DNA of 64,000 nucleotides from an uncultured Bacillota bacterium. GTDB taxonomy: Bacteria > Bacillota > Dehalobacteriia > UBA4068 > UBA4997. Position numbers and translations under genes: made by a program. The stretch is from the NCBI GenBank assembly GCA_948907985.1, contig CAQWMM010000004.1, forward strand, positions 319 through 64,318, given 5' to 3'. Below are positions 4,240 through 52,901 of this stretch, piece by piece (the stretch's first letter is position 1; each line of letters starts with the position of its first letter). The notes beneath the pieces are model-generated. The model was not told where the DNA came from and ran no database searches. It saw nothing but the letters and a program-made list of their open reading frames with translations.

Positions 4240-7224
4240 CTAACCTATTATTGATTTCTGCGGCAACGATTTTTGCATATTTTTTTCCATAGCCGCCAAC
4301 AAACTGCGCGCCCGGATTTTAACCGCCGCCAGATTATTAACCTCGTCAATTTTCAGCTGGGTATAAATCTTGCCGTTGCGTTCCAAAATATCTTTAAGCT
4401 CGTCGCTGGTTATAGCGTCCAGCCCACAGCCAAAGCTGACAAGCTGCACCAGCTGCATATTCTCATGGCGGCAAACATAGCGCGCCGCATTATACATTCT
4501 GGTGTGATACGTCCATTGGTTCAGAACGTTCACTTTCTGGCTGTATACCAAATCGGTCAAAACGCGCTCCGACACCACCACGAACCCCAGCGAGTTAAAC
4601 ATCTTATCAATACTATGGTTGATCTCCCTGTCCACATGATAAGGCCGACCGGCCAGCACCACCACGTTCCAGCCCTCTTCTTCGGCCTGGCGCAGCGCGT
4701 TCAGGCCATACTCTTCCACATCCGCCCACCAGCTGCGATAAAAACGCCAGGCCTGGTTGGCCGCCTGAATACAGTTGGCCAGCGTAAAGTTCAGTTCCGG
4801 ATACAAATCATAAAAACGGTTCGCCAAAACCAGGCGGTCGTTCAAACTCAAATAAGGATACATAAAGTCAATATCTTTCAGCGCCGGCACGTTGGCATGC
4901 AGCAGCTCGGGATAATAAGCCACCACCGGGCAGTTATAATTCTTATCGCCGCGCCCCTCGTCGATGTTATAACTGGAGCAGGGATAAAAAATCCGCTCCA
5001 CGCCCTTGGCCAACAGCGCCTCAATATGCCCGTGCGCCAGCTTTGCCGGATAACAAACCGTATCCGAGGGGATCGAGAACTGGCCCCTGGCGTAAAGCTG
5101 CCGCGATGATTCGCCGGAAATCACCACATTACATTTAAGCTCCTTAAAAAATGTATACCAAAAAGGCAGATTTTCATACATATTCAAAACCAGCGGTATA
5201 CCAATCGTCAAGCGACCCGGGTTCGCCGCCGCTTCTTCCTCGGCAGTCTGCATCAGCGCTTTAAATTTATTGTTGATGTATTCATAAACATTGGGCCGGT
5301 TCAGCGGTTTGCCGCCCTGCCCCCGCTCACATTTGTTGCCGCTGATAAACCGCCGCCCGTTAGGGAACAGGTTGATTGTCAAAGAACAGTGGTTAGCGCA
5401 GCCCTGGCAGGTAGCCGGCCGGGCCTGATGCTGAAAAGCCGCCACCTCTGCCGCCGGCAAAATGCTGGACGCGCTTTTGCCCAGGGCCTTGTGGCGTTCC
5501 TGCGCATAAAGCGCCGCCCCAAATGCGCCCATCAAACCGGCAATATTCGGGCGCACCACGTCATAACCCAGTTCGCGCTCAAAACTGCGCAGAACCGCGT
5601 CATTCAAAAACGTTCCGCCCTGCACCACGATTTTCCGCCCCAGCTCGCTGGCACTGTGCACCCGCAGCACCTTGTAAATGGCGTTTTTCACCACGCTGAT
5701 TGCCAGGCCGGCGCTGACGTCGCCAATTTCCGCCCCGTCGCGCTGGGCCTGCTTAACAGAGGAGTTCATAAAAACGGTGCAGCGCGAGCCCAAATCCACC
5801 GGCCGTCTGGCGAATAAGGCCAGTTTAGCAAATTCCGCCGGCGAATAGCCCAGCGCCTCCGCAAAAGTCTGGATAAAAGAACCGCAGCCGGAACTGCAAG
5901 CCTCATTCAACACAATACTGTCAATCGTGTCATTGCGGATGGTGAAACATTTCATATCCTGCCCGCCGATGTCAATAATGTAGTCCACCTGCGGCTCGAA
6001 AAAGTGGGCCGCCGTAAAATGGGCCACCGTTTCCACCAGACCATAATCGATATTAAAAGCGTTCTGGATCAGTTCCTCACCGTAACCGGTAACCGCCCCG
6101 GCGCGCAGTTCGATTCGGTCGCCCAACAATTCGTAAATGTGCAGCAGCTGGTTTTTAATAATCGGCAGCGGATTGCCCTGATTGCTGGCATAGTAGGTAT
6201 AAAGCAAGTTGCCGTTCTCGCTGATCAGGGCCAGCTTCGATGTGGTGCTGCCCACGTCAATACCCAAATAGGCCGCGCCCCGATAGCTGGCAATATCCGC
6301 CTCCGGCACGCTGTCGCGGCGGTGCCGGTCCAAAAACTGTGCGTATTCCACTTCATCAGCAAAAAGCGGCTCTAAAAATCGGCTTTTACCCTTAATTGCG
6401 CTTTGCGAATCCAGCAGTTTTTTCTTCAGATCCTTATAGGTAAAAGTTTCCGTCTGGCCGTCCGCATAAACCGCCGCGCCCAGGGCCACAAAATATTGCC
6501 CCATTTCCGGAAAGACGGCGTTTTCCGGCGCCAGCCGCAGCGTTTCGATAAAGCGCTGCCGCAAACCCATATTAAAAGAAAGCGGCCCGCCCAAAAACAG
6601 AACCTGCCCCTCAATCCGCCGCCCCTGAGCCAGGCCGGTAACCGTCTGCTCGGCCACCGCCTGATAAATACTGGCGGCAATATCTTCCTTGGCGGCTCCC
6701 TGGTTAATCAGCGGCTGAATATCCGTTTTGGCAAAAACCCCGCAGCGCGAGGCTATCGGATAAATTTTTTTATGGCGCAGGCTAAGTTCGTCCAATTCTT
6801 CCACGCTGACATTAAGCAGCGTCGCCATTTGGTCGATAAACGCCCCCGTGCCGCCGGCGCAGGTGCCATTCATGCGCTCCTCCATGCCGCCGGTCAAAAA
6901 CAAAATTTTAGCGTCCTCGCCGCCCAGCTCAATGACCACATCCGTGTCCGGCTCCAACTCGTCCACCGCGCCGGACAGAGCGTAAACCTCCTGCACAAAA
7001 GGAATACCGCTCGCCTCAGCCAGCGACATCCCAGCCGAGCCGCTAATAGCCACTTTAACCTCATGCTTGTTAAGCAGCAGAGCCAACCCCCCGACAATTT
7101 CCGTCAGCTTTTCAGCAATTCTGGAACCATGGCGCTGATAGGTTGAATATAGCAGCCGTCCGCCATCGTCAATTAAAACTACCTTAATAGTTGTCGAACC
7201 AATATCAATACCTAATCTATACAT
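4240..7224 (-). CDS. CoA-substrate-specific enzyme activase: tandem BadF/BadG/BcrA/BcrD(HgdC)-type ATPase domains fused to a C-terminal dehydratase-associated domain
   Basis: 994-aa ORF. There are two actin-fold ATPase N-termini: MYRLGIDIGSTTIKVVLID and, from about aa 310, YLGIDVGSTTSKLALIS. A Cys-rich C-terminal domain follows. It forms an operon with 2779-4224. Confidence 0.6.
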   Translation of the reverse strand: MYRLGIDIGSTTIKVVLIDDGGRLLYSTYQRHGSRIAEKLTEIVGGLALLLNKHEVKVAISGSAGMSLAEASGIPFVQEVYALSGAVDELEPDTDVVIELGGEDAKILFLTGGMEERMNGTCAGGTGAFIDQMATLLNVSVEELDELSLRHKKIYPIASRCGVFAKTDIQPLINQGAAKEDIAASIYQAVAEQTVTGLAQGRRIEGQVLFLGGPLSFNMGLRQRFIETLRLAPENAVFPEMGQYFVALGAAVYADGQTETFTYKDLKKKLLDSQSAIKGKSRFLEPLFADEVEYAQFLDRHRRDSVPEADIASYRGAAYLGIDVGSTTSKLALISENGNLLYTYYASNQGNPLPIIKNQLLHIYELLGDRIELRAGAVTGYGEELIQNAFNIDYGLVETVAHFTAAHFFEPQVDYIIDIGGQDMKCFTIRNDTIDSIVLNEACSSGCGSFIQTFAEALGYSPAEFAKLALFARRPVDLGSRCTVFMNSSVKQAQRDGAEIGDVSAGLAISVVKNAIYKVLRVHSASELGRKIVVQGGTFLNDAVLRSFERELGYDVVRPNIAGLMGAFGAALYAQERHKALGKSASSILPAAEVAAFQHQARPATCQGCANHCSLTINLFPNGRRFISGNKCERGQGGKPLNRPNVYEYINNKFKALMQTAEEEAAANPGRLTIGIPLVLNMYENLPFWYTFFKELKCNVVISGESSRQLYARGQFSIPSDTVCYPAKLAHGHIEALLAKGVERIFYPCSSYNIDEGRGDKNYNCPVVAYYPELLHANVPALKDIDFMYPYLSLNDRLVLANRFYDLYPELNFTLANCIQAANQAWRFYRSWWADVEEYGLNALRQAEEEGWNVVVLAGRPYHVDREINHSIDKMFNSLGFVVVSERVLTDLVYSQKVNVLNQWTYHTRMYNAARYVCRHENMQLVQLVSFGCGLDAITSDELKDILERNGKIYTQLKIDEVNNLAAVKIRARSLLAAMEKNMQKSLPQKSIIG

Positions 7225-13761: not shown

Positions 13762-14433
13762 TCAATGCCCTGCGCTGGTGGCCGTGTCAATATAAATGGC
13801 TGAAAGCATGGTAAACACCAGCGCCTGAATAGCGCCGAAAAGCAAACTAAGCACCATAATGACGATTGGCGCACCCAGCGGGATCAGCCCGCTAACCTGA
13901 TGTAGCACAGTTTCTTCACCATAGATATTACCGAATAGACGCAAAGAAAGAGATAACGGGTGAGTAACCTCTTCCAGCAGCATCAAAGGCAGCAGCGGCG
14001 CTACTGGCTTCACAAAATGCCCTAAATAATGCACGCCGTGATATTTGAAACCGCCAAACTGCGTGGTTAAAAACGTGATCAGCGCCAGGCCCACCGTACA
14101 GCTAAGCGTGCCGGTTGGGGGCTGAAAGCCCGGCAGTTCTCCGGCCAAAGGCAATAAGCCGCTGTAATTAGAAACAATAATAAACATAAACAGCGTCCCC
14201 AGGATTGGCAAAAAATAAGTTGCTTTTTCCTTGCCAATAATGCTGGCATAAAAATCACGAAGGCTCCCCACCGCGTATTCCAGCGCGCTTTGCAAACGTC
14301 CCGGTTTACGCTCTTTAAGGTTGCGGGTGCCGGCAATCGCCACCACGCTCAACACCGCCGTAATCGCCACCGACGTAGTCATCACACTGTCCACAGCGAA
14401 GCCGCCGACTTCAAACAAAATAGCGTTAGACAT
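13762..14433 (-). CDS. atpB: F1Fo ATP synthase a subunit
   Basis: 223 aa polytopic membrane protein. The conserved Arg lies in LSLSLRLFGNIYGEE. Confidence 0.9.
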   Translation of the reverse strand: MSNAILFEVGGFAVDSVMTTSVAITAVLSVVAIAGTRNLKERKPGRLQSALEYAVGSLRDFYASIIGKEKATYFLPILGTLFMFIIVSNYSGLLPLAGELPGFQPPTGTLSCTVGLALITFLTTQFGGFKYHGVHYLGHFVKPVAPLLPLMLLEEVTHPLSLSLRLFGNIYGEETVLHQVSGLIPLGAPIVIMVLSLLFGAIQALVFTMLSAIYIDTATSAGH

Positions 14434-14519
14434 AAATACCTGCCTCCTTTCTTTGCAAACTTAATGTAAAATATTTGAAAACTTTTTTACATCTCTTAAA
14501 TAAAAATAACCATATTGTC

Positions 14520-14682
14520 CCGCCCTCTCAGCCATCGACTCCCTAAAGGTCGCCGCTGCCAGCTCCCCCAAAAGGGGGAGCCAAGTTTAAATACTTAACT
14601 ATTAATAAACATTTTAAACCTGCCTCTCCCTTTGGGAGAGGTGTCATATCTGACCGTTAAGGAAGATATGACGGAGAGGGTA
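14520..14682. repeat. MITE-like element copy A (terminal inverted repeats GCCCTCTC...GAGAGGGT, internal palindromes), inserted between atpI and atpB
   Basis: The left end is cgCCCTCTCag and the right end gacgGAGAGGGta. Internal hairpins are gctcccccaaaagggggagc, cctctccctttgggagagg and tcatatct...agatatga. A 25-nt stretch is identical with copy B. Confidence 0.6.
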
Positions 14683-14687
14683 ATTCA

Positions 14688-15071
14688 TTAAGAACCCTGT
14701 CCCGCTCTAATTCGCTTATTCATACCGGAACAGGCCAACATAATCTGGAAGAAAACCGTAATCATCAACGCCACCCCCAGCAGGATATACTCCCAGCGGA
14801 AAGGCAGCATATTCCTGGCCAAAAACAAGCCCAGCAGCAAAAGCACATCCAACAGATATTTGCTGACATGAAACCGCAATATCACATTCAAAGTTTGGCG
14901 GTCTTCCGCCTGCTTGTCCCCTCCGGCCGCAATCGCCGCTGCCGCTTTGGCGTCCCGTTTCTTTATCACATTAAAAAGCAAGGCCAGAGCTAGCAATGCC
15001 CAAGCGCCGCCAATCAACATACCCAAAAGCAGCGCGTAAACAATTTCCATAATGCTCTGACCTCCCGTCAA
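14688..15071 (-). CDS. atpI: ATP synthase protein I-like small membrane protein
   Basis: 127-aa hydrophobic protein at the first position of the atp operon. The true start is possibly the internal MEIVYALLLG. Confidence 0.5.
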   Translation of the reverse strand: MTGGQSIMEIVYALLLGMLIGGAWALLALALLFNVIKKRDAKAAAAIAAGGDKQAEDRQTLNVILRFHVSKYLLDVLLLLGLFLARNMLPFRWEYILLGVALMITVFFQIMLACSGMNKRIRAGQGS

Positions 15072-15195
15072 GTTTCTGCTTAAAGCTTCGGCCCAGCCGC
15101 CCCAATTTGCTTAAAGCCGCTTTTCCAATTATTATTATACAAAAGAGGAGGGCAAAAGGCAATACCAAAAACCCATTTTACACAAAATTTTTCAA

Positions 15196-19425: not shown

Positions 19426-19451
19426 TATGTACTCCTAACATAATTTGATGT

Positions 19452-19595
19452 TGTAATTTTTTTGTCAGCACGCCGCCCTCTCAGTCATCCAGCCTCGCTG
19501 GATGCCAGCTCTCCCAGAGGGGAGAGCCACGTTTTACAAGCGAAAAGGCCTGCCTCTCCCTTTGGGAGAGGTGGCTATTTTGGGCCTTTAAGGCG
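19452..19595. repeat. MITE-like element copy B (TIRs GCCCTCTCAG...GACGGAGAGGGC)
   Basis: It sits in the intergenic region between topB and the aminopeptidase gene. It shares with copy A the identical 25-mer cctgcctctccctttgggagaggtg and the right-end motif ttaagg...gacggagaggg. Confidence 0.6.
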
Positions 19596-19641
19596 AAAAA
19601 TAGACGGAGAGGGCGTAATATGCAGATGAGCCGCTATTGAC

Positions 19642-23219: not shown

Positions 23220-23308
23220 GGAGAGGTACCGAAGCGGTCATAACGGAGCGGTCTTGAAAACCGTCGCACAGCAATGTGTCGTGGGTTCGAATCCCACCCT
23301 CTCCGCCA
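23220..23308 (+). tRNA. tRNA-Ser (anticodon TGA)
   Basis: The acceptor stem pairs GGAGAGG with CCTCTCC, the anticodon loop is CTTGAAA, the variable arm is long and CCA is encoded. Confidence 0.85.
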
Positions 23309-23325
23309 ATTTACGCACTTGACAT

Positions 23326-23420
23326 GGAGAGTTGGCCGAGTCGGTCGAAGGCGCTCGCCTGCTAAGCGAGTATACGGGCAAAAACCTGTATCGGGGGTTC
23401 GAATCCCCTGCTCTCCGCCA
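23326..23420 (+). tRNA. tRNA-Ser (anticodon GCT)
   Basis: The acceptor stem pairs GGAGAG with CTCTCC, the anticodon loop is CTGCTAA, the variable arm is long and CCA is encoded. Confidence 0.8.
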
Positions 23421-23534
23421 CTAAATGAACACTTAACGATCGACAAGACCAGCAAAGCTGGGCGAAGACAGAGTTTAGTGTGAATTAATCCATTTGGCTT
23501 TAGGCAAATGGTTAGCTTATGATTTTATTTACAT

Positions 23535-23611
23535 GTGCTACTAGCTCAGCTGGATAGAGCGTCTGGCTACGGACCAGAAGGTCGGGGGTTCGAATCCCTC
23601 GTAGCACGCCA
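23535..23611 (+). tRNA. tRNA-Arg (anticodon ACG)
   Basis: The acceptor stem pairs GTGCTAC with GTAGCAC, the anticodon loop is CTACGGA, the T-loop is GGTTCGAATCC and CCA is encoded. Confidence 0.85.
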
Positions 23612-31436: not shown

Positions 31437-31533
31437 TTATCATATTTGTGTTTTTTCATATTATATCAAAAGTCCAATATTATGTCAAATAAAATTATTT
31501 TAATAAATAGACTATTCTAATTATAAACAAAAT

Positions 31534-31640
31534 AACCTCCCTTGGTTTCCCATTGGAGGTTTCTTTTACTCTTTTCTAAACAAAGGCTTGCGCCATTGTC
31601 TATCATCAAATTTTGCAAACAATCTAAACTTCTTCCCAGA
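31534..31640. repeat. conserved inter-cassette element copy 1 (bidirectional terminator-like hairpin plus ~75-nt conserved segment)
   Basis: The hairpin aacctcccttggtttcccattggaggtt is followed by tctaaacaaaggcttgcgccattgtctatcatcaaattttgcaaacaatctaaact. Two further intact copies lie at 32507-32615 and 32960-33055. Confidence 0.6.
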
Positions 31641-31733
31641 ATTTTTCCAATTTTCGCCTTTAATCTAGCTTTTTAGCACACAGTATGCTATAATATAGTT
31701 ACTCACCGCCTCAGGCAGAGAGGAGGTGATTTC

Positions 31734-31826
31734 ATGAATTTTTTTATCTCATTTGCCATCGTTGTCTTGGGTAACATAACCTCTCATTATGCTATCAAAT
31801 GGTTGGACAACATATTTAAGCGGTAG
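31734..31826 (+). CDS. Fst/Ldr-like type I toxin candidate, 30-aa hydrophobic peptide MNFFISFAIVVLGNITSHYAIKWLDNIFKR
   Basis: Extended -10 TGCTATAAT (31686-94). RBS AGGAGGTG 6 nt before the ATG. One TM helix and a charged KWLD..R tail. It is followed by a bidirectional terminator and a convergent promoter. The peptide is too short to appear in the ORF track. Confidence 0.55.
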   Translation: MNFFISFAIVVLGNITSHYAIKWLDNIFKR

Positions 31827-31867
31827 TCAGCCTGGGTTTAAGCTACCCTACTTAGTTAAAAAGAATA

Positions 31868-31938
31868 GAAGAACCTCAGCGGCAACTGGGGTTCTTCGTT
31901 TTGCAACTTGATGATTTCATGAATTTTTATTCTCTCAT
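31868..31938 (-). ncRNA. candidate antitoxin antisense RNA 1 (convergent, RNAII-like)
   Basis: Minus-strand promoter TTGACT-17-TAGAAT (plus coordinates 31969-74 and 31946-51). The transcript would end at the shared hairpin 31871-31894. It contains the complement of the toxin translation-initiation region via the direct repeat at 31909-31940. Confidence 0.45.
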
Positions 31939-32019
31939 TGTTATCATTCTACCACACTTACCTAAAAAAGTCAACCCCATTTCTTCACAAAAAAAGCACC
32001 CCCAGTTTCCCGGGGGAGC

Positions 32020-32120
32020 TTTTCGCCTTACTCAAAACCAAGCATTAAAACTCTTCTTGGCTCCCCCTTTGGGGGAGCTGTCAAATATAAGCTGAAAGCT
32101 TTTATTTGACTGAGAGGGCT
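32020..32120. repeat. MITE-like element copy C (partial), inserted into the spacer element of cassette 2
   Basis: Contains gctccccctttgggggagc and caaatataagctgaaagcttttatttg, and ends with gactGAGAGGGct. It replaces the tctaaacaaagg...ttttg part of the conserved spacer. Confidence 0.45.
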
Positions 32121-32241
32121 ATACAAACAATTTGATCCCTTCCCTAAATTTTTTCAATTTTCGTCTTTAATTTAGCTTTTTAGCACACAGTATGCTATAA
32201 TATATTTGCTAAGCGCCTCTTGGCAGAAAGGAGGTGCGAGT

Positions 32242-32331
32242 ATGAATGTATTACTTTCCATTGCCTCTGCCGTTACGGCAAATGTAATCTCCTATTATGT
32301 TTGCAAATGGCTAGACGGCAGACGGCGCTAA
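32242..32331 (+). CDS. Fst/Ldr-like type I toxin candidate, 29-aa peptide MNVLLSIASAVTANVISYYVCKWLDGRRR
   Basis: Extended -10 TGCTATAAT (32193-201). RBS AAAGGAGGTG. Hydrophobic helix plus KWLDGRRR tail. Same cassette architecture as cassette 1. Confidence 0.55.
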   Translation: MNVLLSIASAVTANVISYYVCKWLDGRRR

Positions 32332-32389
32332 GTTAGCCTGGGTGTAAGCTACCCTACTTACTTAAACAAAAAGTTCGTTAAACAGAATA

Positions 32390-32462
32390 GAAGAACCCCA
32401 GCTGCAACTGGGGTTCTTCGTTTTGCATTTGTGCAAATATGAACATATTACTTTAATTTCCT
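32390..32462 (-). ncRNA. candidate antitoxin antisense RNA 2
   Basis: Minus-strand promoter with perfect consensus TTGACA-17-TATAAT (plus coordinates 32492-97 and 32469-74). It ends at the bidirectional hairpin 32393-32416. The direct repeat 32433-32461 mirrors the toxin RBS/start. Confidence 0.5.
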
Positions 32463-32717
32463 TTTATTATTATACCACCAACCCAATCTTTTGTCAAGCA
32501 CAAAAAGAACCCCCTCTCAGTTTCCCATTGGAGGTTTATTTTACTCTTTTCTAAACAAAGGCTGGGAGCCACTGTCTATCATCAAGTTTTGCAAACAATC
32601 TAAACTCTTTCCCAAAATTTTTCCAATTTCAGCTAAACTTCTGGCTTTTTCCCATACCCTGTGCTATAATAGACTTGACCGCATTAAACATACCTGCGGC
32701 GGAGGGAGGTGGGAATT

Positions 32718-32801
32718 TTGCTAGGTTGGTTTCTCACAGTGCTCGGCACCGTAATTGCAAACGTGATTTCTGATTGCATAAGCAAATGGTTAGAACGGTG
32801 A
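32718..32801 (+). CDS. Fst/Ldr-like type I toxin candidate, 27-aa peptide (TTG start) LLGWFLTVLGTVIANVISDCISKWLER
   Basis: Extended -10 TGTGCTATAAT (32662-70). RBS GGAGGGAGGTG 6 nt before the TTG. There is no in-frame ATG, and a GTG 7 codons downstream is an alternative start. Hydrophobic helix plus KWLER tail. Confidence 0.45.
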   Translation: MLGWFLTVLGTVIANVISDCISKWLER

Positions 32802-32839
32802 TAAACAAATCTAATCGGGTCTAGGCTACCTTTAAAGCC

Positions 32840-32914
32840 AGAAAACCCCCAGGTTGCGACTGGGGGTTTTCTCTTTCTAATTTACTAAGTTTTTTCTCAC
32901 AGCTTTAACTTTCT
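32840..32914 (-). ncRNA. candidate antitoxin antisense RNA 3
   Basis: Minus-strand promoter TTGACA-17-TATAAT (plus coordinates 32944-49 and 32921-26). It ends at the hairpin 32843-32870. The direct repeat around 32876-32905 (tttttctcacag) mirrors the toxin start region. Confidence 0.5.
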
Positions 32915-33059
32915 GTATTAATTATACCACCAAGCCAATCTTTTGTCAAGCACAAAAAGAACCTCCCTCAGTTTCCCAAGGGAGGTTCTTCAAACTCATT
33001 TCTAAACAAAGGCGTGAGCCATTGTCTATCATCAAGTTTTGCAAATAATCTAATTTAGA

Positions 33060-36000
33060 TTATTTGATTATTACATTAACAGCGATGACATTCTCACCGT
33101 CTTTCAAAGTAACGTCTGCTTTCTTAATTGTACATTCAAAAACACCGCTCTTTGTCTCGTCAATATCGACTATATCCGCATCAAGCCAAGTAGCATTCAG
33201 CTTAACTTCGATATCTTTAACTTTGTCAGAACCATTGTTTTCAACAGTGAAAGTGATTGCGGAAGTCTTATCCTTAACTGTTCCTACTTCGAAATCATGG
33301 AATCTAACAGTATCGCCATCTTTGTCTTTAACTGTCAGTTTGATATCCTTCTTGAAAGTTGCTTTAGAAGAAGTCTTATCGTCTTCATCATAATCTCTGT
33401 TGGTAACATATTCGTCTACCAATACTGCACCTGCATAACCGTCATCGTTGATAAACGGAACATATGCGTAGGAGTTTCTGCTAATATCGCTCAAAGCGCC
33501 TTCTCTGTACTTACCAGTGTTAGAATCCAGAACGTAAACCACGGTATTAGCGTCTGTCATTACGCGATTTACATAAACATTATTTCCATCAATGTTTGCT
33601 TCATCGCCATAATTCTCATCATCATTATGGAACTCATCCATATAATCGATAAGTACAACAGGATCTTTGAAATAAATCCAGCCGTCATTGAAACCGCTTA
33701 CCAATTTAGCTAAATTGGTCAAGCCATCGGTCTTTTTATAAGACGCCAAAATGTCGATCTCATCACCGGACAATGTGTAAACAATGAAATGACCTGCACC
33801 AGGTTTAGCACCATTAAGAACATCACCCAGATCATAAACTTTATCGTCGCCCTCCAAAGTGATAGCGAAATCGTCTTCACCATTGCTCATAAAGCCAGCA
33901 TGATCAGCATCAGTGAACTTCCAAGCCTTGATTACACCGTAGTACTTGGTGCTGCTATGAGAAGAAGTATAAGCAAATGCTTTAATGCTATGGTTGGTAT
34001 TGCTTATATACTTGGCATAAGCCTGAACAGGCAAGAACTTATAACCATCTGTAGTCAACATTTTAACATCGTCAACTGTTTCTGGCTCAAAATCGCCGCC
34101 GCTCAGCAACGCAGAACGTGTTACTAAAGATACATCCAGTTCATTTTCATCTTCGCCAACCTCAAAAATAACTACATTCGAGGCCAAGGAAGCGGACAAT
34201 CTAGTACCAGTGCTAGTGCCATCTGCTGCTTTTACAGGCTCAGTTACCAAATAAGCGTTGTTCTTAACCTGAATCTCGGTGTTGCCACCATCCAGCATAT
34301 TAGTCCAAGCGCTACCAACTAACTTACCATCTTTATATGCGTCATTACCATTTGCATCTTCAGCATTCCAACCGCCACTAATAGTCTTAATAGCGCCGTC
34401 AGCATTCAACTTATAGGCTACCGGCTGACCCATATATTTCTGTACCATTTCAGTATTCTGCGGTTTACCTTTGCAGTCCTTTGACAAATCATAGGTTACA
34501 GTGTAACCTTCCTGCGTAAACAGGGTGATTGTGGACATGCTCTTGCCCCAGCTGCCGTTGCCGCCACCGTCAACAACTACGCCGTAAAGGGTTGTACCGG
34601 TAGAAGTTTCGTCAACGATAATAGCTGCAATGGTGTTATCCTTATTCAGCAAGTATTTAACATTGTTGTTGTAAACATCTTCAGATGTTACATCAGACTG
34701 TTCCAGATCTTCTTCGTAGAACTGCGGATTCAATGTTACAATACCATCAACATCCTCATCTGCTTTTTGATTAGGATCATTTACAAACACATATTTCTTG
34801 CCGCCGATTGTCGCTTTATGCTGATACCACTTAATATCATCACCATCTTTAAGCGTTCCAACCTCGGTACGGGTAAAGTCGCCGGATTGATCAGTTACTT
34901 TAACATACAATTCGCCTTCTTTGATCTCTCTGATAGCATCGCCAACCTGCAAATCGGAGGGAGCAACAAACTTGCCATCAGCATAAACCAAAGTATCAGC
35001 GTCGTTCATGTTAACAGTCTTGGTCTTGCTACCTACCAAACGAGCAGATGCAGTGGTCATGCTCTTAACGTAGTAAGCTTTGTCTTCAAAATCTCTGTCA
35101 GATGCTACATAGTAAACCTGATCGTCATCATTGAAGTACATAGAATAATTGGTATTCTTCCAATCTTTTTCTACATCATCGGTCAGAGTAGGATCTTTTA
35201 CAGCATTGTAGTTAGTGGAAAGAACTTTAACCTTATTATCGCCATTCTGTTCAACCTTATCGGTTACAGTCTGGATATAAGATTCAACTTCGATAAAACG
35301 AGCATACTTTCTGTCGCCCTCAGTTACATAATAAACTTTGCCCTGATGATGTTCCAAATCGAACAAACCTTCAGCATTGTGGGAAACAGCAGTGTTTTCG
35401 TCAACAATAACATTACCGTCAAAATTATCTTTGCCTACTTTGTTATCGTTGGTGTCTTTTGCCAAGTTGGCAATACGACCAGCAACGTTCCAGTTCAATG
35501 TTTTATCAGCAACATTGCGAACCTGGTTAATAGTAGCAAAGTCATCTACTTCGATAAAGGAACCCTCAAAGCTGTCGTCCAACAAAGTGATGTAGGTAGA
35601 ACCGCTCTTCGTTGTCTGTTTGTAAACAAACTCATTGGTATCTTTATCATAAGTAACAATAGCAGTATCCAATGCTTCACCCAGCATAACAACGATGTCG
35701 CCACGTTTTGCAGCAGCGCTGGCAACGATAGATACATCGTCCATAATGCCAATCTGGTTAGCTTTGGTTACATAGTTTACCGGCCAGCTGCCAGTCAGGT
35801 TGTCATTGTAGCCCAACAAACGCAGCAAAACGGTAATAGCCTCCTGGTTGGAGATGGTATCATTCGGACGGAAGTTGCCGTTGGTGTCGCCCTTGAAAAT
35901 GCCAAGGCTCTCAGCAGCATTAATCCAACCGGTATACCAGCTATTTGCACGAACATCTTTGAAAGCGCTAGCGTTGGCCTCCAACATTGTAGCGGTTTCT

Positions 36001-36236: not shown

Positions 36237-36402
36237 CTTTCTTTTTCCTCCTTATAAAGTTGGTACATTGATATCGGTTGAAGTCCAACCGATTCCCCAA
36301 GCCCCCTCGGTCGGCTCTCAAAACCCGCCGAAGAAACTTTTCACCATAATTACAATCACTGAAACAAAAAACTTGCGCACAAATTAAAATTTTCTTTAGA
36401 AA

Positions 36403-42950: not shown

Positions 42951-42976
42951 ATACTCCCCTGGTCTTAAAATGTTTA

Positions 42977-42996
42977 AATGTTTCACATGAAACATT
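42977..42996. promoter_or_regulatory. parS-like site (AATGTTTCACATGAAACATT), one mismatch from the palindromic TGTTTCACGTGAAACA
   Basis: Inverted repeat with 9-nt arms and a 2-nt spacer. It lies within a ~50-nt block duplicated at 45263-45312. Confidence 0.55.
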
Positions 42997-43240
42997 TTTT
43001 ATAATTTTGACAAACTATTTTACAATAATTATCTAATAAAAGATTTTCTTTATAGAATAAATTCTGTTTTTGATACTCTTTTTTAGTATTGACAAACAAT
43101 TTTATAATAATTATCTAATAAAAGTTTTTCTTTATAGAATAATATATTATTCTGGCATAGAATTTTTCTCTAAAAAATAGGAAACCTTTCTATCATATAT
43201 AATAAGATATTTTCTCCAGAATGTCAAGATTATAAAAAAA

Positions 43241-45148
43241 TCAAGATTTCAAAATAATGAGTAGAACGGCAATGTCCGCCGGCGAAACACCGGTAATCCG
43301 CCCAGCCTGCCCCAGATTATCCGGCCGAACGGCGGCCAGCTTTTGGCGCGCCTCCAGGCTCAGTCCCTCAATTTTGCTATAATCCAAATCCAGCGGCAAT
43401 TTTTTGCTTTCCAGCTTGGCAAAGCGCGCCACCTGCTCCTGCTGCTTTTTAATATAACCCGCATATTTTGCCGCAATATCCAGCTGCTCTGCCACATCGC
43501 GGCTTTGCGGCTCCCGGTGCAAAATTTGGCAGACCTGCCGGTAGTCAACCTCCGGCCTTTTCAGCAATTCCCAGGCGCGGATATTGCAGGAGAGCGCCGG
43601 CTGCAAATTAACGGCGGCGGCATTTTCCTGCGTTATCACCGCCTGCTCCAAAAAATGTTTTTCAGCAGCCACCGCCTGCTCCTTAGTCTGCCAGCGGTGA
43701 TAAGCGGCGTTATCCGTCAAACCAAGTTTATAACCCAACTCCGTCAAACGGCTGTCAGCATTATCATTGCGCAGCAAAAGACGATATTCCGCCAGAGAAG
43801 TAAACATACGGTATGGCTCGGTTACGCCCTTACTTACCAAATCATCAACCAAAACGCCCAGATAGGCGTCCGCCCGGCCCAGAACCAAAGCCGGCCTTTT
43901 AAGCAAACTTAGAGCGGCGTTAGCCCCGGCCAGCAGGCCTTGTCCGGCTGCCTCCTCATAACCGGATGTGCCGTTAATCTGACCGGCAGTGTATAGCCCA
44001 GCCACCGGTTTAGTTTCCAATGTTAGTTTCAGCTGGGTTGGTTCCACAAAATCATATTCAATGGCATAGGCCGGCCTGATTATTTTAACCGCTTCCATTC
44101 CCGGAATAGTGCGCATAAAAGCATACTGCACATCTTCCGGCAAACTAGTAGACATACCCTGCACATAATATTCGTTGGTGTCCAGTCCCTCCGGCTCCAA
44201 AAAAAGCTGGTGATGTGGCCGCCCCGGAAAACGGCGCAGTTTATCTTCAATCGACGGGCAATAACGCGGGCCAATGCCCTTAATCAGACCGCTATACAGC
44301 GGGCAACGGTGCATATTATCCAAAATGGCGCGGTGTGTTGCTTCATTAGTATAAGTCAGCCAGCAGGAAATATTTGGCCTTTTCACACCCACCGGCGGCG
44401 TATAGGAAAAATGCAGGCCGCTGTCATCCCCCGGCTGCTCTTCCATGCGGCCAAAATCCAAGGTATTCTTATCCACACGGGCGGGCGTGCCCGTCTTAAA
44501 GCGTCCAAGCTTAAAACCTAAGGCCCGCAGACTATCCGAAAGATAAACCGCCGGTGGATAACCGGCCGGCCCAGAGGGATAGGCACAGCTGCCCATAATC
44601 ACATTGCCCTTTAAATATGTGCCGCTGGTAATCACCAACCGCCGGCAACGATAAATTGCCCCAGTGCGCAGACGCAGACCGCAAATTTGCGGCTGACCAC
44701 TTTCAGCCATTTCGGTTAAAATTGCCACCGCCTCGCCCTGCTTAATATCCAACTCCGGCTGTGCCTGCAAATAGGCCAGCATCGTGCGCTGATACAACTT
44801 TTTATCAATCTGGGCGCGCAGCGCCTGCACCGCCGCCCCTTTGCTGGTATTCAACAAACGAATTTGAATTTGCGTCAAATCGGTGATTTTGGCCATCGCG
44901 CCTCCCAAGGCGTCAATCTCGCGCACAATCACGCCCTTGGCCGGCCCACCGATTGAGGGATTGCAGGGAGCCATGGCCACACTGTCCATAGAAAGCGTAA
45001 CCAACAAGGTGGATACGCCTAAACGCGCCGCAGCCAGCGCCGCTTCACATCCGGCATGCCCCGCGCCCACCACAATCACGTCATACTCGCCAGCCTCAAA
45101 ACAATCTACATCATTATTATCTAATAATTTGTAATCTTGACAAACCAT
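43241..45148 (-). CDS. mnmG: tRNA uridine-5-carboxymethylaminomethyl modification enzyme MnmG/GidA
   Basis: 635 aa. The FAD-binding N-terminus is [24 protein letters not shown] ~20-aa N-terminal extension is present and the true start is uncertain. Confidence 0.85.
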
Positions 45149-45269
45149 TCTTCTTAAAATCTTGACAAACTATGTGTCATAATTCCTCTCATATCATTTC
45201 ATCTCTATAAAAATAGGACTACTTTCTAAAATATTAGAATAACCCCGCTCCGAATTTTCAAAGCCTTAA

Positions 45270-45289
45270 AATGTTTCACATGAAACATC
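45270..45289. promoter_or_regulatory. second parS-like site (AATGTTTCACATGAAACATC)
   Basis: Same inverted repeat as 42977-42996, in the same flanking context (cttaaaatgtttcacatgaaacat.ttttataat.ttgaca.actat). Confidence 0.5.
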
Positions 45290-45428
45290 TTTTATAATAT
45301 TGACAGACTATATTACGTTATACTTCTATTAAAATTTTATCTCTATAGAATAGGATTGCTTTTCTAAAATACTAAACTAAACCCTCTCCTGATTGCCAAG
45401 GCCTCAAAAAATCCGGAATGCCAAAGCC

Positions 45429-49218: not shown

Positions 49219-49391
49219 TTCATCTGCCTCCTTATTTTTTGCTTATTTGATTGATTATATCACAAATTAACTCTCTCTTCAATAGGCCAGGCCCAAAAAA
49301 ACGCTTGCAGACAAAAAAATCAATCATTTTGCACCCGCCGCCTTTTACAAGCATAAATATAAATATCAAAATTAAAAGGAGGTTCTTCAAA

Positions 49392-49706
49392 ATGCTTTTA
49401 AACTCTATCTATGGCAACACCTGCGGCAGCTGTGGCTGCGGCAACAACGGCAGCTTATTTGCCAACAACAACACCGGCTGCAACAGCTGTGGCTGCAATG
49501 GCGGCTGTAACAACTGCGGCTGTAACAACTGTGGCTGCAACAATGGTTTTTCCGGCTGTGGCAACAATCTGGGCAACGCCGCCTACGGCTTTGTCGGCGA
49601 TTGGGTAAACATCGTAGTTACCCTCACCGTTCTGCAAAGCATTCTTGGCCTGGTTTGCAACTGGAACTGCGGCTGCGGCTGCGGCACAACCACTTACGCC
49701 AACTAA
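49392..49706 (+). CDS. Cys/Asn/Gly-rich small membrane-anchored protein with repeated CGCNN motifs (novel; possible RiPP precursor or metal-binding peptide)
   Basis: 104 aa: MLLNSIYGNTCGSCGCGNNG...CNSCGCNGGCNNCGCNNCGCNNG...WVNIVVTLTVLQSILGLVCNWNCGCGCGTTTYAN. A strong RBS AAAGGAGG lies 8 nt before the ATG. It is transcribed divergently from scfA and followed by a terminator. Confidence 0.6.
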   Translation: MLLNSIYGNTCGSCGCGNNGSLFANNNTGCNSCGCNGGCNNCGCNNCGCNNGFSGCGNNLGNAAYGFVGDWVNIVVTLTVLQSILGLVCNWNCGCGCGTTTYAN

Positions 49707-49752
49707 TTTGCGCCAACAAACTTCAACTTATTCCAGAACAGAACAAAGCGGT

Positions 49753-49795
49753 CGGTATCTTTAAGCCGGCCGCTTTTCTCAAAAAATCTTTTTCT
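49753..49795 (+). terminator. intrinsic terminator after the Cys-rich ORF
   Basis: The hairpin agcggtcgg-tatctttaag-ccggccgct is followed by a T-rich run. Confidence 0.5.
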
Positions 49796-49822
49796 AAAAT
49801 TTTTCAAGGAGGTAATATAAAT

Positions 49823-50761
49823 ATGAATAAACAGGAAGTAATTAACCGTCTGCATGAAACCAGTCAGGCTCTGGAACAGCTGGCTCAGCATTTAAGCGAG
49901 CTGGAACCAGCGCAGGCGGAAACCGAAACCAGCCCGACAGCGGATATAACAGCTGCGGCAGACACAACAGACATAACAGACGCAACAGATACTTCGGATG
50001 CGACAGAAGATGAAGAAGACCCCGCCCCCCCGGCCGAATTTATATCGCACGCGGAAACCAATTCAGAAATAGCCGATTTAATTATCGAAACCACTTTTGA
50101 GCCTATCGACGATGAACCGGCAAAAAAAAATGACGATTCAACCAATTCTTCGGTCAAAAGCGCTAACGCCCCCTTCAATTTTTCAGCAAACGGTTCAAAT
50201 AATAACCCATTTGCTAAAATTATCAACAATCTGTTGAGCAAACCAATTCCCAATGCCAACAATCTGGGCGCTTTTAATCCTCTGCAAATGTTAACCGGCG
50301 GACTTGGCGGTTTGCCCGGAGGGCTATCAGGTTTGCCCGGAGGGCTATCAAATTTGCCCGGCTTAAACGGTCAATCCCTGCCCGCCACTCTGGCCGAACT
50401 GCATGATAACCCTCAACTTTTAGGTATGATTAAAAATGTCAGCAACAATCCACAAATGCTTAATATGCTCTCTGCCCTGACCGGACAGGACAGTCAAACC
50501 CTCCAACAAACCCTGCAAAGCTTACAGCCCAAACCTGACAACATCACTGCACAACCAAACAGTCAACCCGGCGTTCAATCAGACGTTCAGCCAACAATTC
50601 AAGCTGCCGCCAGACAGGCCGCTATACCGCAAACTGAATTTACTCCCTTAAATATTGCCAATTCTGCTGACGCCGCCGGTAGTCTGCCTTCCACTCCCTA
50701 CCTTGATTCTCTGCTGGCCGAATGGCATTGGCAGCCCTACGCCCGCGCCTGGAATTTTTAA
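49823..50761 (+). CDS. hypothetical acidic low-complexity protein with GGLPGGLSGLPGGLSNLPGLNG repeats
   Basis: Start at MNKQEVINRLHE with RBS AAGGAGG. The central region is Asp/Thr-rich (TADITAAADTTDITDATDTSDATEDEED). The listed ORF start at 49601 overlaps the preceding gene and is probably wrong. Confidence 0.55.
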   Translation: MNKQEVINRLHETSQALEQLAQHLSELEPAQAETETSPTADITAAADTTDITDATDTSDATEDEEDPAPPAEFISHAETNSEIADLIIETTFEPIDDEPAKKNDDSTNSSVKSANAPFNFSANGSNNNPFAKIINNLLSKPIPNANNLGAFNPLQMLTGGLGGLPGGLSGLPGGLSNLPGLNGQSLPATLAELHDNPQLLGMIKNVSNNPQMLNMLSALTGQDSQTLQQTLQSLQPKPDNITAQPNSQPGVQSDVQPTIQAAARQAAIPQTEFTPLNIANSADAAGSLPSTPYLDSLLAEWHWQPYARAWNF

Positions 50762-50847
50762 GATATTGACAAACTATGTTAGGTAATGCTGTTATGTAGG
50801 GATATTCTATATAGAATAAAAAGTGCCTCTAAAAACATACTTTAAAC

Positions 50848-50906
50848 CTGGCTCCCCCCTCTGGGGGAGCTGGCTATTTGCGTTAGCAAATAGACTGAGG
50901 GGGCGC
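50848..50906. repeat. MITE-like element copy D (short deletion derivative)
   Basis: Contains gctcccccctctgggggagc and ctatttgcgttagcaaatag, and ends with gacTGAGGGGGCg, which resembles the right TIR. Confidence 0.4.
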
Positions 50907-50947: not shown

Positions 50948-51757
50948 TTATTTATTTTCAGCAGCTAACTTAAAATAGGCTTTAAATTTATCCTCCGGCA
51001 TACCAAAAACCGGAATTTCCGAGCAGATCTGCCTGTTTTCGTCGTCCGGTTGATTAAGCCCGTCCTGCCGCAAACGATAACGCAGATTTTGCGCCGTTCC
51101 CAGATTACCGTCATAAAGTCTAAGCCCGGGAAACATCTGCTTTAACAAACCACGCAGAAAAATATAATGCGTACAACCCAAAACCAAAGCGTCGTCTTTA
51201 TCCGATGATAAAACCGCCTCCAGCTTATTCCGCAAATAATCGCAAATAACGTCAGTTTTTTTATTAATCAACTCATTTTCAATCAGCTGTACTAATCCCG
51301 GGCAAGGCAAAATTTTAATTTCCGCCAAAGCAGAATCTGCCGCTAAAAGCCGGCGCAGTTTTTCTCCCCTGGTGGTTACATCCGTAGCCAGAGCGACAAT
51401 TTTCTTTTCGCCGTTTTTCACAGCCAAATGTACCGCCGGTTCCATACCCAAAATCGGCAAATCCGGATTTTCCGCCCGCAAAGCCGCCGCCGCGGCGCTG
51501 GTAGCAGTATTACAGGCAATCACCATTGCTTTAACGCCGCGTTTTTTAAAAAAAGCCGTAACAGCCCGCGCCCGCTGCAAAATAAATTCCTGGCTACGTT
51601 CCCCATAAGGAGCGTTTGCCAAATCGCCAAAATAAACAAAACGCTCGGCCGGCAGCAAATTCTGCGCCAAGGGCAAAAAACTAATACCCCCCACCCCAGA
51701 ATCATAAACGCCAATCTCCGCCTGTTTAAGGCCCGTCTTATCTAAACAATTCTCCAT
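50948..51757 (-). CDS. murI: glutamate racemase
   Basis: 269 aa. GVYDSGVGGISFL...CNTATSAA are the conserved racemase motifs. Confidence 0.85.
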   Translation of the reverse strand: MENCLDKTGLKQAEIGVYDSGVGGISFLPLAQNLLPAERFVYFGDLANAPYGERSQEFILQRARAVTAFFKKRGVKAMVIACNTATSAAAAALRAENPDLPILGMEPAVHLAVKNGEKKIVALATDVTTRGEKLRRLLAADSALAEIKILPCPGLVQLIENELINKKTDVICDYLRNKLEAVLSSDKDDALVLGCTHYIFLRGLLKQMFPGLRLYDGNLGTAQNLRYRLRQDGLNQPDDENRQICSEIPVFGMPEDKFKAYFKLAAENK

Positions 51758-52901
51758 TTTTTACCTCAATCAGCTGATAATCTTCTTCAGACAGCTTTTT
51801 CAGCTCACCGGCTATTTCCGTAGCCGTAATAAAAATTTGCGCCTTGTCCAACATCAGCCGCAGCAAAGCCTGACGGCGGTTTTTATCCAATTCAGAAAAA
51901 ACGTCGTCCAACAGCAGCAGCGGATAATAGCCGGAAAGCTGATAAACCAGCTCCAACTCCGATAATTTCAAGGCCAAAGCCGCCGTACGCTGCTGCCCCT
52001 GCGAGGCATAATAACGCCCCTCGTTATCATTAATATAAATGCGAAAATCATCACGGTGCGGCCCCAACAGTGTTGTCCGCCGCCTTTGATCCTCCGCCCT
52101 TCCGTCGGCGTAAGCCTGGCGCAGGCTGGCGCTTAATTCCGCCGGCGATAAAGCGGCAATTTTTTCTTCCGGCCAAACCGATAAATATTGCAGGCGTAAA
52201 CATTCCTGTTCATTTGTCAGTTCCGCTTGAATTTTCCGCCCGGTCTGATTTAACAAAGTCAAAAGCTGCAAACGCCGCTGCATAATCACCGCGCCGTTTT
52301 CGGCCAGCTGCTCCTCCCAAACCGCCAGTTGTTCGTCTGCCTGCTGTTTATTTTTAGGCGGCCTAAAATCCAGCTGTTTCAGCAAATTATTGCGCTGCTG
52401 TAAAGCCCGGCGATAATTATTCAAATAAAGATAATAGCCCTTGTATAACTGAACCATTTCCCGGTCCAGAAACTTCCGGCGCACCTCCGGAGCTGATTTA
52501 ACCAGCTGCAAATCTTCCGGCGTAAAAACCACCGTATGCAGCAGGCCGGCAATTTCACTAATCCGGCGGCAGGGCTTTTCATCACGTTTCCACAGCCGGC
52601 GATTATGCGTCCCTTTCGTTTTAACCGCTTCCGAACCGACGGAAAGCAAATGCACGCCGTCTTTATTACTATATTCCGCCCGCAGATAAAAAAACTCCTC
52701 GCCCTGGCGGCGCAGCTTATCGTCCCCCTGCTCCCGAAAGGACGAACCCAGGCTTAAATAAGCGATTGCCTCCAGCAAATTAGTTTTCCCTTGAGCGTTA
52801 TCGCCCAAAATTAAATTCAGGCGCGAATTAAAACTGACTTCCGTATCCCGATAATTGCGAAAATTGCGCAGCACCAGCGTATTTAAATGCAAACCAGCCA
52901 T
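51738..52901 (-). CDS. recF: DNA replication and repair protein RecF
   Basis: 387 aa. The Walker A motif is GDNAQGKTNLLEAI. The signature motif is near the C-terminus. Confidence 0.9.
   Translation of the reverse strand: MAGLHLNTLVLRNFRNYRDTEVSFNSRLNLILGDNAQGKTNLLEAIAYLSLGSSFREQGDDKLRRQGEEFFYLRAEYSNKDGVHLLSVGSEAVKTKGTHNRRLWKRDEKPCRRISEIAGLLHTVVFTPEDLQLVKSAPEVRRKFLDREMVQLYKGYYLYLNNYRRALQQRNNLLKQLDFRPPKNKQQADEQLAVWEEQLAENGAVIMQRRLQLLTLLNQTGRKIQAELTNEQECLRLQYLSVWPEEKIAALSPAELSASLRQAYADGRAEDQRRRTTLLGPHRDDFRIYINDNEGRYYASQGQQRTAALALKLSELELVYQLSGYYPLLLLDDVFSELDKNRRQALLRLMLDKAQIFITATEIAGELKKLSEEDYQLIEVKNGELFR

Follow-up and report, generated by a model that had tools for sequence, protein, structure and literature searches.

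The element shown here (copy A, 14520-14682) is one of four loci in the window, by which we mean the whole 64-kb stretch of DNA analysed, that together hold six short units, all of them intergenic: the inverted pairs A and B and the single units C and D. These elements are probably widespread, short, non-coding and self-folding DNA repeats of the REP/BIME kind, equipped with a hairpin-bridged triplex motif of the BoxC type. The family assignment and the architecture of the unit can be given with high confidence, and the elements are very likely REP/BIME-like rather than MITEs, an earlier note on this DNA having described them as MITE-like.

Architecture of the repeated unit

Each unit is about 60 nt long (50-65) and consists of a conserved pyrimidine/purine hairpin (hp1), a variable hairpin (hp2) and a conserved purine tail, GAC(G/T)GAG(A/G)GGGC, in the order 5'-(Y)TG-hp1-T-hp2-tail-C. 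In hp1, an 8-nt pyrimidine arm is joined by a loop of 3-4 nt to the 8-nt purine arm GGGRGAGS, while hp2 is a G...C hairpin of 17-35 nt whose sequence varies and whose structure is conserved. The 8-nt purine tail K-GAG-R-GGG is the mirror image of the hp1 purine arm GGG R GAG S, not its complement. Two unit types were distinguished, namely type 1 (GAGG-TG...AC-G-GAG) and type 2 (GAGC-TG...AC-T-GAG). The composition of hp2 tracks that of the host, being AT-rich in the window and GC-rich in Caulobacter, and hp1 and the tail remain constant.

The tail motif GACKGAGRGGGC occurred seven times in the window at up to one mismatch (0.66 expected), and the hairpin CCTCTCCC-N3-GGGAGAGG twice (0 expected). 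An identical 25-mer was present at 14619-14643 in A and at 19549-19573 in B (repeat family D17); both it and the hairpin palindrome had been pointed out before and were found again. A covariance model built from homologues recognised the six units only, at 52-58 bits (E ~1e-15), the best other match in the rest of the window reaching 15 bits. A candidate at 36300-36312 was rejected, as it comprises only a tail-like 12-mer (6 bits). When folded as DNA, the six units formed hp1 and hp2 followed by an unpaired tail, at -16 to -19 kcal/mol and with z values of -3.3 to -6.5.

All four loci named in the earlier note are present on reading the sequence, and their description as small, non-coding, multi-copy elements is supported, while several of their boundaries had to be redrawn. 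The left unit of A (type 2; 14521-14585, minus strand; -16.0 kcal/mol, z = -3.3; 51.9 bits) has the hp1 GCTCCCCC-TTTT-GGGGGAGC at 14562-14581 of the minus strand, then a variable hp2 and the tail CTGAGAGGGC (plus strand 14522-14531 = GCCCTCTCAG). It is followed by an AT-rich linker (14586-14618) that is unlike the linker of B except for the TTTAAAC-type leader of each unit. In the right unit of A (type 1; 14619-14682, plus strand; -16.4 kcal/mol, z = -6.3; 56.1 bits), the 5' arm of hp1, CCTCTCCC, lies at 14623-14630, the loop at 14631-14633 and the 3' arm, GGGAGAGG, at 14634-14641, with hp2 at 14643-14672 and the purine tail GGAGAGGG at 14673-14680. The right end of A reads ...GAGAGGGT and not ...GGGC, as previously given.

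Copy B was placed at 19475-19614 instead of 19452-19595, the former position being approximately 20 nt too far left. Its left unit (type 2; 19474-19531, minus strand; -18.0 kcal/mol, z = -4.4; 57.4 bits) has the hp1 arms GCTCTCCC and GGGAGAGC, the hp2 CATCCAGC-GAG-GCTGGATG and the same tail as the left unit of A, whereas its right unit (type 1; 19549-19615, plus strand; 57.6 bits) shares the hp1 25-mer with the right unit of A and carries an unrelated hp2. Units C (32056-32120, plus strand; -19.1 kcal/mol, z = -6.5; 54.4 bits) and D (50847-50905, plus strand; tail CTGAGGGGGC; -18.0 kcal/mol, z = -5.2; 53.5 bits) are complete single units of type 2. Unit C is flanked on both sides by small-toxin-like modules, and unit D lies between the convergent genes of an ORF at 49601-50761 (plus strand) and a glutamate racemase-like gene at 50948-51757 (minus strand).

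In both A and B, one type 2 and one type 1 unit stand head to head, so that their tails face outward and resemble terminal inverted repeats. This organisation had been interpreted as MITE-like, with C and D as truncated or deletion derivatives; a classical MITE would be a non-autonomous IS derivative of about 150 bp, bounded by such repeats and moved in trans by the transposase of that IS. The end sequences GCCCTCTCAGTC and GACGGAGAGGGC are in fact complementary at 11 of 12 positions in A and B, but they are better read as the tails of inverted units, the single mismatch being the systematic difference between type 1 and type 2. When the six units were aligned in one orientation, the repeated module was the half-unit of about 60 nt and not a 150-bp element: homology between A and B is confined to these halves, and neither the linkers (38 nt and 22 nt) nor the second hairpins resemble each other in sequence, although pairing is kept. 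Moreover, the scores of C and D are on a par with those of the units making up A and B, no target-site duplication or direct repeat flanks A, B, C or D, and a tblastn search of the window with an approximate IS200 TnpA query returned nothing. Among the homologous loci, this query gave one weak match (L116, E = 0.025), approximately 3 kb from the unit.

Distribution of the family and the insertion in the atp operon

A scan of species-representative genomes, employing a pattern in which the type-defining bases were left free, located the unit at at least 119 genome loci across phyla, and the same pattern found it at at least 120 viral-contig loci of IMG/VR. Hosts among the matches listed included Caulobacteraceae and other Alphaproteobacteria, Oscillospiraceae, Faecalibacterium and other Clostridia, Planctomycetota, Acidimicrobiia, Longimicrobium and a Muribaculaceae MAG. 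The unit family is not lineage-specific. A metagenome scan with a lineage-specific pattern yielded one locus only, which is degenerate (L134), and a string search of the literature for the motif sequences gave unrelated primer matches only. When the ORFs neighbouring the unit were clustered over 240 loci, the groups obtained were mostly of spurious GC-rich ORFs and of genes that phages have in common.

Among the matches listed, 40 pairs were head-to-head, 31 tail-to-tail and 5 direct, and 71 units were single; several units per 8-kb locus were found at other loci, and the viral contig L194 holds head-to-tail arrays with a period of 66-67 nt. Tail-to-tail pairs and head-to-tail arrays both argue against the MITE model, as do the widely spaced inverted pairs of L073 and L109, which enclose SGNH-like and penicillin-binding-protein-like genes and no parental IS, and the conservation of the core sequence across phyla. 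Instead, we propose that units would be gained or lost in intergenic DNA by a mechanism that leaves no target-site duplication, frequently in inverted pairs whose tails would then mimic terminal inverted repeats.

Copy A had been placed between atpI and atpB. The gene immediately downstream of it (13762-14433, minus strand) was confirmed as atpB, encoding ATP synthase subunit a, by a profile match to PF00119 (7.9e-48), and atpE was also confirmed by profile search. The upstream gene (14688-15071, minus strand) encodes a small three-helix membrane protein that matched none of the Pfam and NCBIfam models, AtpI profiles included, and its name as atpI-like is therefore positional only. The nearest named AtpB sequences were approximately 50-55% identical to that of the window.

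The spacer between the atpI-like gene and atpB measures 254 nt in the window, where it contains the element, whereas four relatives have shorter spacers without it: 155 nt in L126 (93% AtpB identity), 123 nt in L130 (76%), 79 nt in L132 (77%) and 78 nt in L129 (78%). The approximately 75 nt adjoining atpB are conserved in all four relatives; this atpB-proximal leader, ATGTAAAA...TTTTACAT...TTTGCAAAGAAAGGAGGCAGG (14434-14510, minus strand), is common to all of them, and element A lies just upstream of it. Given that the element is missing from the spacers of these relatives, copy A is a recent and lineage-specific insertion between the two genes. The earlier note had named a conserved structured RNA at orthologous sites as an outcome that would count against its mobile-element proposal; since copy A does not occupy orthologous sites, the proposal passes on that point.

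The element-free orthologous site would also suit a MITE, and so would the behaviour of short-read contigs carrying this atpB, which break inside the element as a repeat would. In contigs of the same species, copy A was nearly unchanged, and most of these contigs end within it. Nevertheless, taken together with the half-unit module, the lack of a target-site duplication, the complete units C and D and the spread over phyla, a classical MITE is a very improbable explanation. With respect to the other units, relative L132 carries one single unit as well as an inverted pair, the latter within its mrp operon, and none were found in approximately 20 kb of the other relatives. The relative with 93% AtpB identity has NADAR and Phd/PIN genes at the locus of B instead, which places B in a variable region.

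It had further been stated that copy A must be part of the atp mRNA. The only promoter-like site on this strand, TTGCCT-17-TATAAT (15134-15162, minus strand), lies upstream of the atpI-like gene, and a terminator scan found none in element A or the spacer; copy A is thus probably, though not certainly, co-transcribed with atpB. As RNA, it is predicted to fold into a five-way junction (-79.8 kcal/mol, z = -7.2) in which the two tails pair as the closing stem, so its transcript would form a very stable multi-hairpin RNA. Any specific role of copy A in the atp operon is nonetheless improbable, and we regard it as a recent insertion that would be tolerated. In practical terms, the units are found within operons such as atp and mrp, break short-read assemblies and give rise to spurious small ORFs (e.g., '...APPLGELS...').

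Helix covariation, the folded strand and the triplex reading

Covariation was evaluated on a model-based alignment of 146 distinct sequences. Across hp1 and hp2, 90.5% of cells were paired, and changes on both sides of a pair were observed in 359 cells compared to 101.5 in shuffles, none of the 500 shuffles reaching the observed value; the helix covariation score was 0.381, against 0.05-0.09 when the partners were slid. The pairs also differ between the strands. On the purine-tail strand, 64 G.T pairs were counted versus 8 A.C pairs, a G.A stood beside the closing pair of hp2 in 82 cases, and GNA triloops closed by C-G were the commonest hp2 loops (64/177), with TNC, the complement of the GNA loop, absent among frequent hp2 loops. 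GNA triloops are typical of DNA mini-hairpins, and those of the d(GCGAAGC) type are exceptionally stable. Hence, the G.T excess, the G.A pairs and the GNA loops indicate that one specific strand, that of the purine tail, folds.

These asymmetries bear on an explanation without any single-strand folding, in which the units would be binding sites on duplex DNA (palindromic operators) or bidirectional intrinsic terminators. Palindromic organisation and intergenic location are compatible with both, and E. coli REP/BIME elements bind IHF and gyrase (PMC2817692). However, hp2 is free in sequence while its pairing is kept, which a duplex-reading protein would not tolerate, the mirror repeats would be meaningless to duplex-binding dimers, and the strand-asymmetric pairs and loops point to folding of one strand. 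As no T-run follows the hairpins, and with the scan of element A negative, termination fits no better, and we consider this explanation extremely improbable. Readings as attC, riboswitch, CRISPR or tRNA-like structures were rejected because their defining features are absent.

A structured RNA acting in transcripts, be it an mRNA stabiliser or processing site of the kind demonstrated for certain REPs or an sRNA related to whalefall-1, would make the DNA triplex irrelevant. The strong covariation of both helices and the preference for G.T over A.C speak for this possibility, in addition to the probable transcription and stable predicted fold of element A. Further, positions 14620-14681 gave the only full-length Rfam match, to whalefall-1, which has the same layout of two hairpins and a purine tail. 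At 15.9 bits, this match falls short of the gathering score of 37 and does not make the right unit of A a member; no Rfam family passed threshold in the window by gathering score or E-value, nor did any at the gathering score in 18 homologous loci.

The orientation of single units relative to flanking genes was determined with a GC3 filter on gene calls, which are still crude. At bacterial loci, 10 units were in sense and 8 in antisense to co-directional flanking genes, that is, no bias was detected. In viral contigs, 59 of 69 were antisense and 10 sense, and the purine-tail strand was the C-rich strand of the contig in 151 of 161 single units, although related phages may inflate both counts. 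While such a bias in itself could be taken in favour of an RNA module, its direction speaks against the folded strand simply acting as RNA, since this strand in phage contigs is mostly the strand absent from mRNA. A replication- or strand-specific constraint is one possible cause; another is that the forward-strand GGAGG(TG), which resembles a Shine-Dalgarno sequence, is selected against in phage mRNAs. Considering also the lack of conservation at orthologous sites, the GNA triloops and the three-strand code described below, an RNA module is an unlikely explanation of the family.

The block order of pyrimidine arm, purine arm and purine mirror tail is that of a class II intrastrand triplex of the purine motif, and hp2 returns the tail antiparallel to the purine arm of hp1. 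In such a fold, the purine-tail strand, when present as single-stranded DNA, would place its tail antiparallel in the major groove of hp1, making G*G-C, A*A-T and T*A-T contacts, with T*C-G in type 2 units, and a REP-like hairpin would take the place of the 3-nt second loop of a BoxC-type triplex. The first three of these contacts are the canonical antiparallel triplets (PMC4666352). Within the window, the right units of A and B have 8 of 8 canonical triplets, the left unit of B and unit D have 7 plus T*C-G, and the left unit of A and unit C have 6 plus T*C-G and one C-G*A. Thymine, the natural base usually chosen opposite a C-G inversion, has reportedly been used in this way in antiparallel triplexes by Beal and Dervan and by Durland. 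The T.CG triplet is documented for the pyrimidine motif, and in the literature no natural base binds a CG inversion well, T*C-G being weak.

Changes in the three strands were coordinated. In a structure-based alignment of the genome set, 94 units had C-G*G at position 8 and 46 had G-C*T, without a single recombinant, and position 4 was C-G*G in 68, T-A*A in 34, C-G*A in 32 and T-A*G in none. The viral loci constitute an independent set that had no part in forming the triplex idea; here, no base was prescribed at positions 1, 4 and 8 of any of the three strands, and the geometry of hp2 alone served to find the tail. In this set, position 8 was C-G*G in 48 units and G-C*T in 55, again with no recombinants (raw Fisher p = 3e-31, kinship ignored), position 1 was C-G*G in 67, T-A*T in 19 and T-A*G in one (raw Fisher p = 7e-18, kinship ignored), and at position 4, T-A was always accompanied by A in the tail (raw Fisher p = 2e-5, kinship ignored). 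Over both sets, the T-A*T class comprised 20 units at 15 loci, spread over type 1 and type 2 and over a wide variety of hp2 sequences, and isolated cases were observed of C-G*G changing to T-A*A at position 7 (L023) and of A*A-T changing to T*A-T at position 6 (L109). Three positions thus co-vary in three strands according to the antiparallel purine-motif code, C-G*G alternating with T-A*A, T-A*T or G-C*T.

Two other uses of the tail were rejected. A pyrimidine-motif triplex of the complementary strand, which RNA could form, fits positions 4 and 6 and fails at 1 and 8, and a terminator/antiterminator switch in which the tail would pair with the 5' arm of hp1 is precluded by the tail being a mirror and not a reverse complement. 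RNA reportedly does not form triplexes of the purine motif (PMC4666352), so that the fold fitting the code would be one of single-stranded DNA, which again weighs against an RNA module. Against the triplex, the non-canonical C-G*A is frequent at position 4 (32-42), and the two tails of an inverted pair can base-pair with each other, which would compete with it. In addition, the amplification of old sublineages could account for types 1 and 2 and for the T-A*T subclass, in which case the counts overstate the number of independent events.

We infer the triplex fold from the three-way covariation together with the strand asymmetry, and lean slightly towards its being under selection. The fuller proposition, that selection maintains a hairpin-clamped intrastrand purine-motif DNA triplex in a repeat family shared by phyla and phages, is put forward as tentative and somewhat doubtful. 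If true, it would provide the first comparative (evolutionary) evidence for a DNA triplex as a functional fold in vivo, and would mark a single-stranded DNA stage (replication, repair or transfer) during which the repeats serve as a barrier or undergo recognition or copying; the strand bias of the units in phage contigs would then trace back to it. It bears on the question of whether intrastrand DNA triplexes ever matter in cells, and since the changes follow the triplex code across phyla and phages, the family supplies natural 'compensatory mutants' for tests.

Comparison with known repeat systems

The closest parallel in block order is BoxC, on which earlier work, under this name or as PIT, is said to be that of Bachellier, Hoyne and Maher. 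The repeat BoxC/PIT/TM_ECO is defined as CCCTCNCCC-N3-6-GGGNGAGGG-N3-GGGNGAGGG and was counted 3610 times over 262 genomes of Proteobacteria (Holder et al. 2015, PMC4666352). [quoted passage not shown] Both BoxC and the units described here follow the class II purine-motif order of 5' C-rich arm, loop, G-rich arm, loop and G-rich mirror, and their cores are nearly equal (CCCTCTCCC / GGGAGAGGG / GGGTGAGGG in BoxC, CCTCTCCC / GGGAGAGG / GGAGAGGG here). Both are multi-copy, intergenic, located in variable regions and found as inverted pairs on opposite strands, and neither has an associated gene or terminator function.

The two differ in that the second loop is here a hairpin of 17-35 nt with covariation of its own and not 3 nt, the arms are 8 nt instead of 9, two coupled unit types (C-G*G and G-C*T) exist, and the units are also present in Clostridia, Planctomycetota, Acidimicrobiia and phage contigs. 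The ITxF search for TM_ECO allowed loops of 1-6 nt (PMC4666352) and would therefore have missed units with a second loop of this length. In line with this, the published BoxC pattern had 0 matches in the window and matched at 2 of 254 loci (L033 and L243), where true BoxC-type elements coexist with hairpin-bridged units. Judged by its layout and cores, the hairpin-bridged unit is a variant of the BoxC-type repeat that the published pattern did not previously cover.

With REP, BIME and REPIN elements, the units share the form of short extragenic palindromes that occur singly or in alternating orientation. The CGTC-tagged REPs are mostly alphaproteobacterial and mostly head-to-head dimers, and they 'apparently lack a dedicated transposase' (Di Nocera et al. 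2013, PMC3733652). On the opposite strand, the hp2 of a type 1 unit takes the form of CGTC, a stem-loop and (G)CCA, the tag and tail by which these REPs are defined. Here, however, the palindrome lies inside a larger unit with hp1 and purine tail, which PMC3733652 does not describe; CGTC stands beside hp2 in type 1 units and is replaced by AGTC in type 2, and many hp2 stems fall short of 8-9 bp, the A-T start being absent as well. In contrast to REP/RAYT systems, no RAYT was found with the approximate query apart from the weak match at L116 mentioned above.

Small size, non-coding sequence, inverted ends and multiple copies are features in common with MITEs such as Correia/NEMIS, RUP and Nezha, as are insertion polymorphism and possible co-transcription with neighbouring genes. 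The units depart from them in having no target-site duplication or identified parental IS, in the repetition of a half-unit and in a core conserved across phyla.

Finally, whalefall-1 (RF01762) is filed as an RNA and known from a whale-fall metagenome only (Weinberg et al. 2010, PMC2864571). In both it and the present units, two hairpins precede a conserved purine tail, and the tail of the Rfam consensus (..GuGAGG..) mirrors the purine arm of its hairpin 1 (GGaGaG) at 6 of 7 positions. CGTC-type REPs, BoxC and whalefall-1 may be parts of one superfamily.

Genomic surroundings of the units in the window

The intergenic region between the topoisomerase and peptidase M18 genes, in which element B (an inverted pair of units) is located, was found to be variable when the window (19426-19641) was compared with L126 (3932-5498), a relative with a 93% identical AtpB. 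In the window this region holds element B only; in L126 it contains NADAR and Phd/PIN toxin-antitoxin genes together with a different, 75-nt tandem repeat.

Unit C, a single type 2 unit, lies between the first and second of three tandem non-coding modules (31440-33060; ~450-510 bp each). Each module encodes a hydrophobic peptide of ~30 amino acids, namely MNFFISFAIVVLGNITSHYAIKWLDNIFKR (31734-31826), MNVLLSIASAVTANVISYYVCKWLDGRRR (32242-32331) and MGILLGWFLTVLGTVIANVISDCISKWLER (32709-32801), and strong hairpins follow module 1 (31868-31897) and module 2 (32390-32419). In their organisation the modules resemble a tandem series of Fst/Ldr-like type I toxin-antitoxin loci.

Immediately upstream of unit D, the other single type 2 unit, there is a copy of a promoter-like repeat family, TTTTTATAATNTTGACAAACTATNTTA ... 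CTTTATAGAATA, with no obvious gene after that copy; family members are located at 42973-43141, 45126-45352 and 50755-50781. In the same part of the window, an ORF at 49251-49706 (+) encodes Cys/Gly/Asn-rich repeats (…CGSCGCGNNGS…CNSCGCNGGCNNCGCNNCGCNN…), and the gene at 51738-52901 (-) encodes what we take, from reading its sequence, to be a RecF-like protein, which suggests a position of the window close to the replication origin.

Other conserved or unit-like sequences

Upstream of atpB, a leader was conserved between the window (14434-14510, minus strand) and the relatives L126, L129, L130 and L132. It consists of an inverted repeat, ATGTAAAA...TTTTACAT, followed by TTTGCAAAGAAAGGAGGCAGG, and may serve the atp operon either as an operator or in translation. 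At 36300-36312 (-) a single 12-mer resembling the unit tail, GACCGAGGGGGC, stands alone upstream of an S-layer (SLH) protein gene; no hairpins were found at this site, and the 12-mer is either a remnant or a chance occurrence. Three clustered tRNA genes are located at 23220-23608 (+).

Orientation and arrays of units in viral contigs

Single units in viral contigs showed a strong strand bias. Among the IMG/VR loci listed (L135-L254), the purine-tail strand coincided with the C-rich strand of the contig in 151 of 161 single units, and those situated between co-directional genes were antisense to these genes in 59 of 69 cases. No comparable bias of single units was seen in the bacterial loci listed.

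In the viral contig L194, whose metagenome series is identical to that of one relative of the window organism, type 2 units form head-to-tail tandem arrays (1692-2074, 4468-4673 and 6449-6904) between co-directional genes, with a period of 66-67 nt and a conserved 15-nt spacer, AACCCGCCGCAGCGTC.

Co-occurrence with BoxC/TM_ECO-type elements

Hairpin-bridged units were found together with canonical short-loop BoxC/TM_ECO-type elements, CCCTCTCCCC-N3-GGGGAGAGGG-N3-GGGTGAGGGG, in two loci: the Phycisphaerales MAG locus L033 (2431-2465) and the viral contig L243 (4964-4998, 6154-6188 and 10652-10686).
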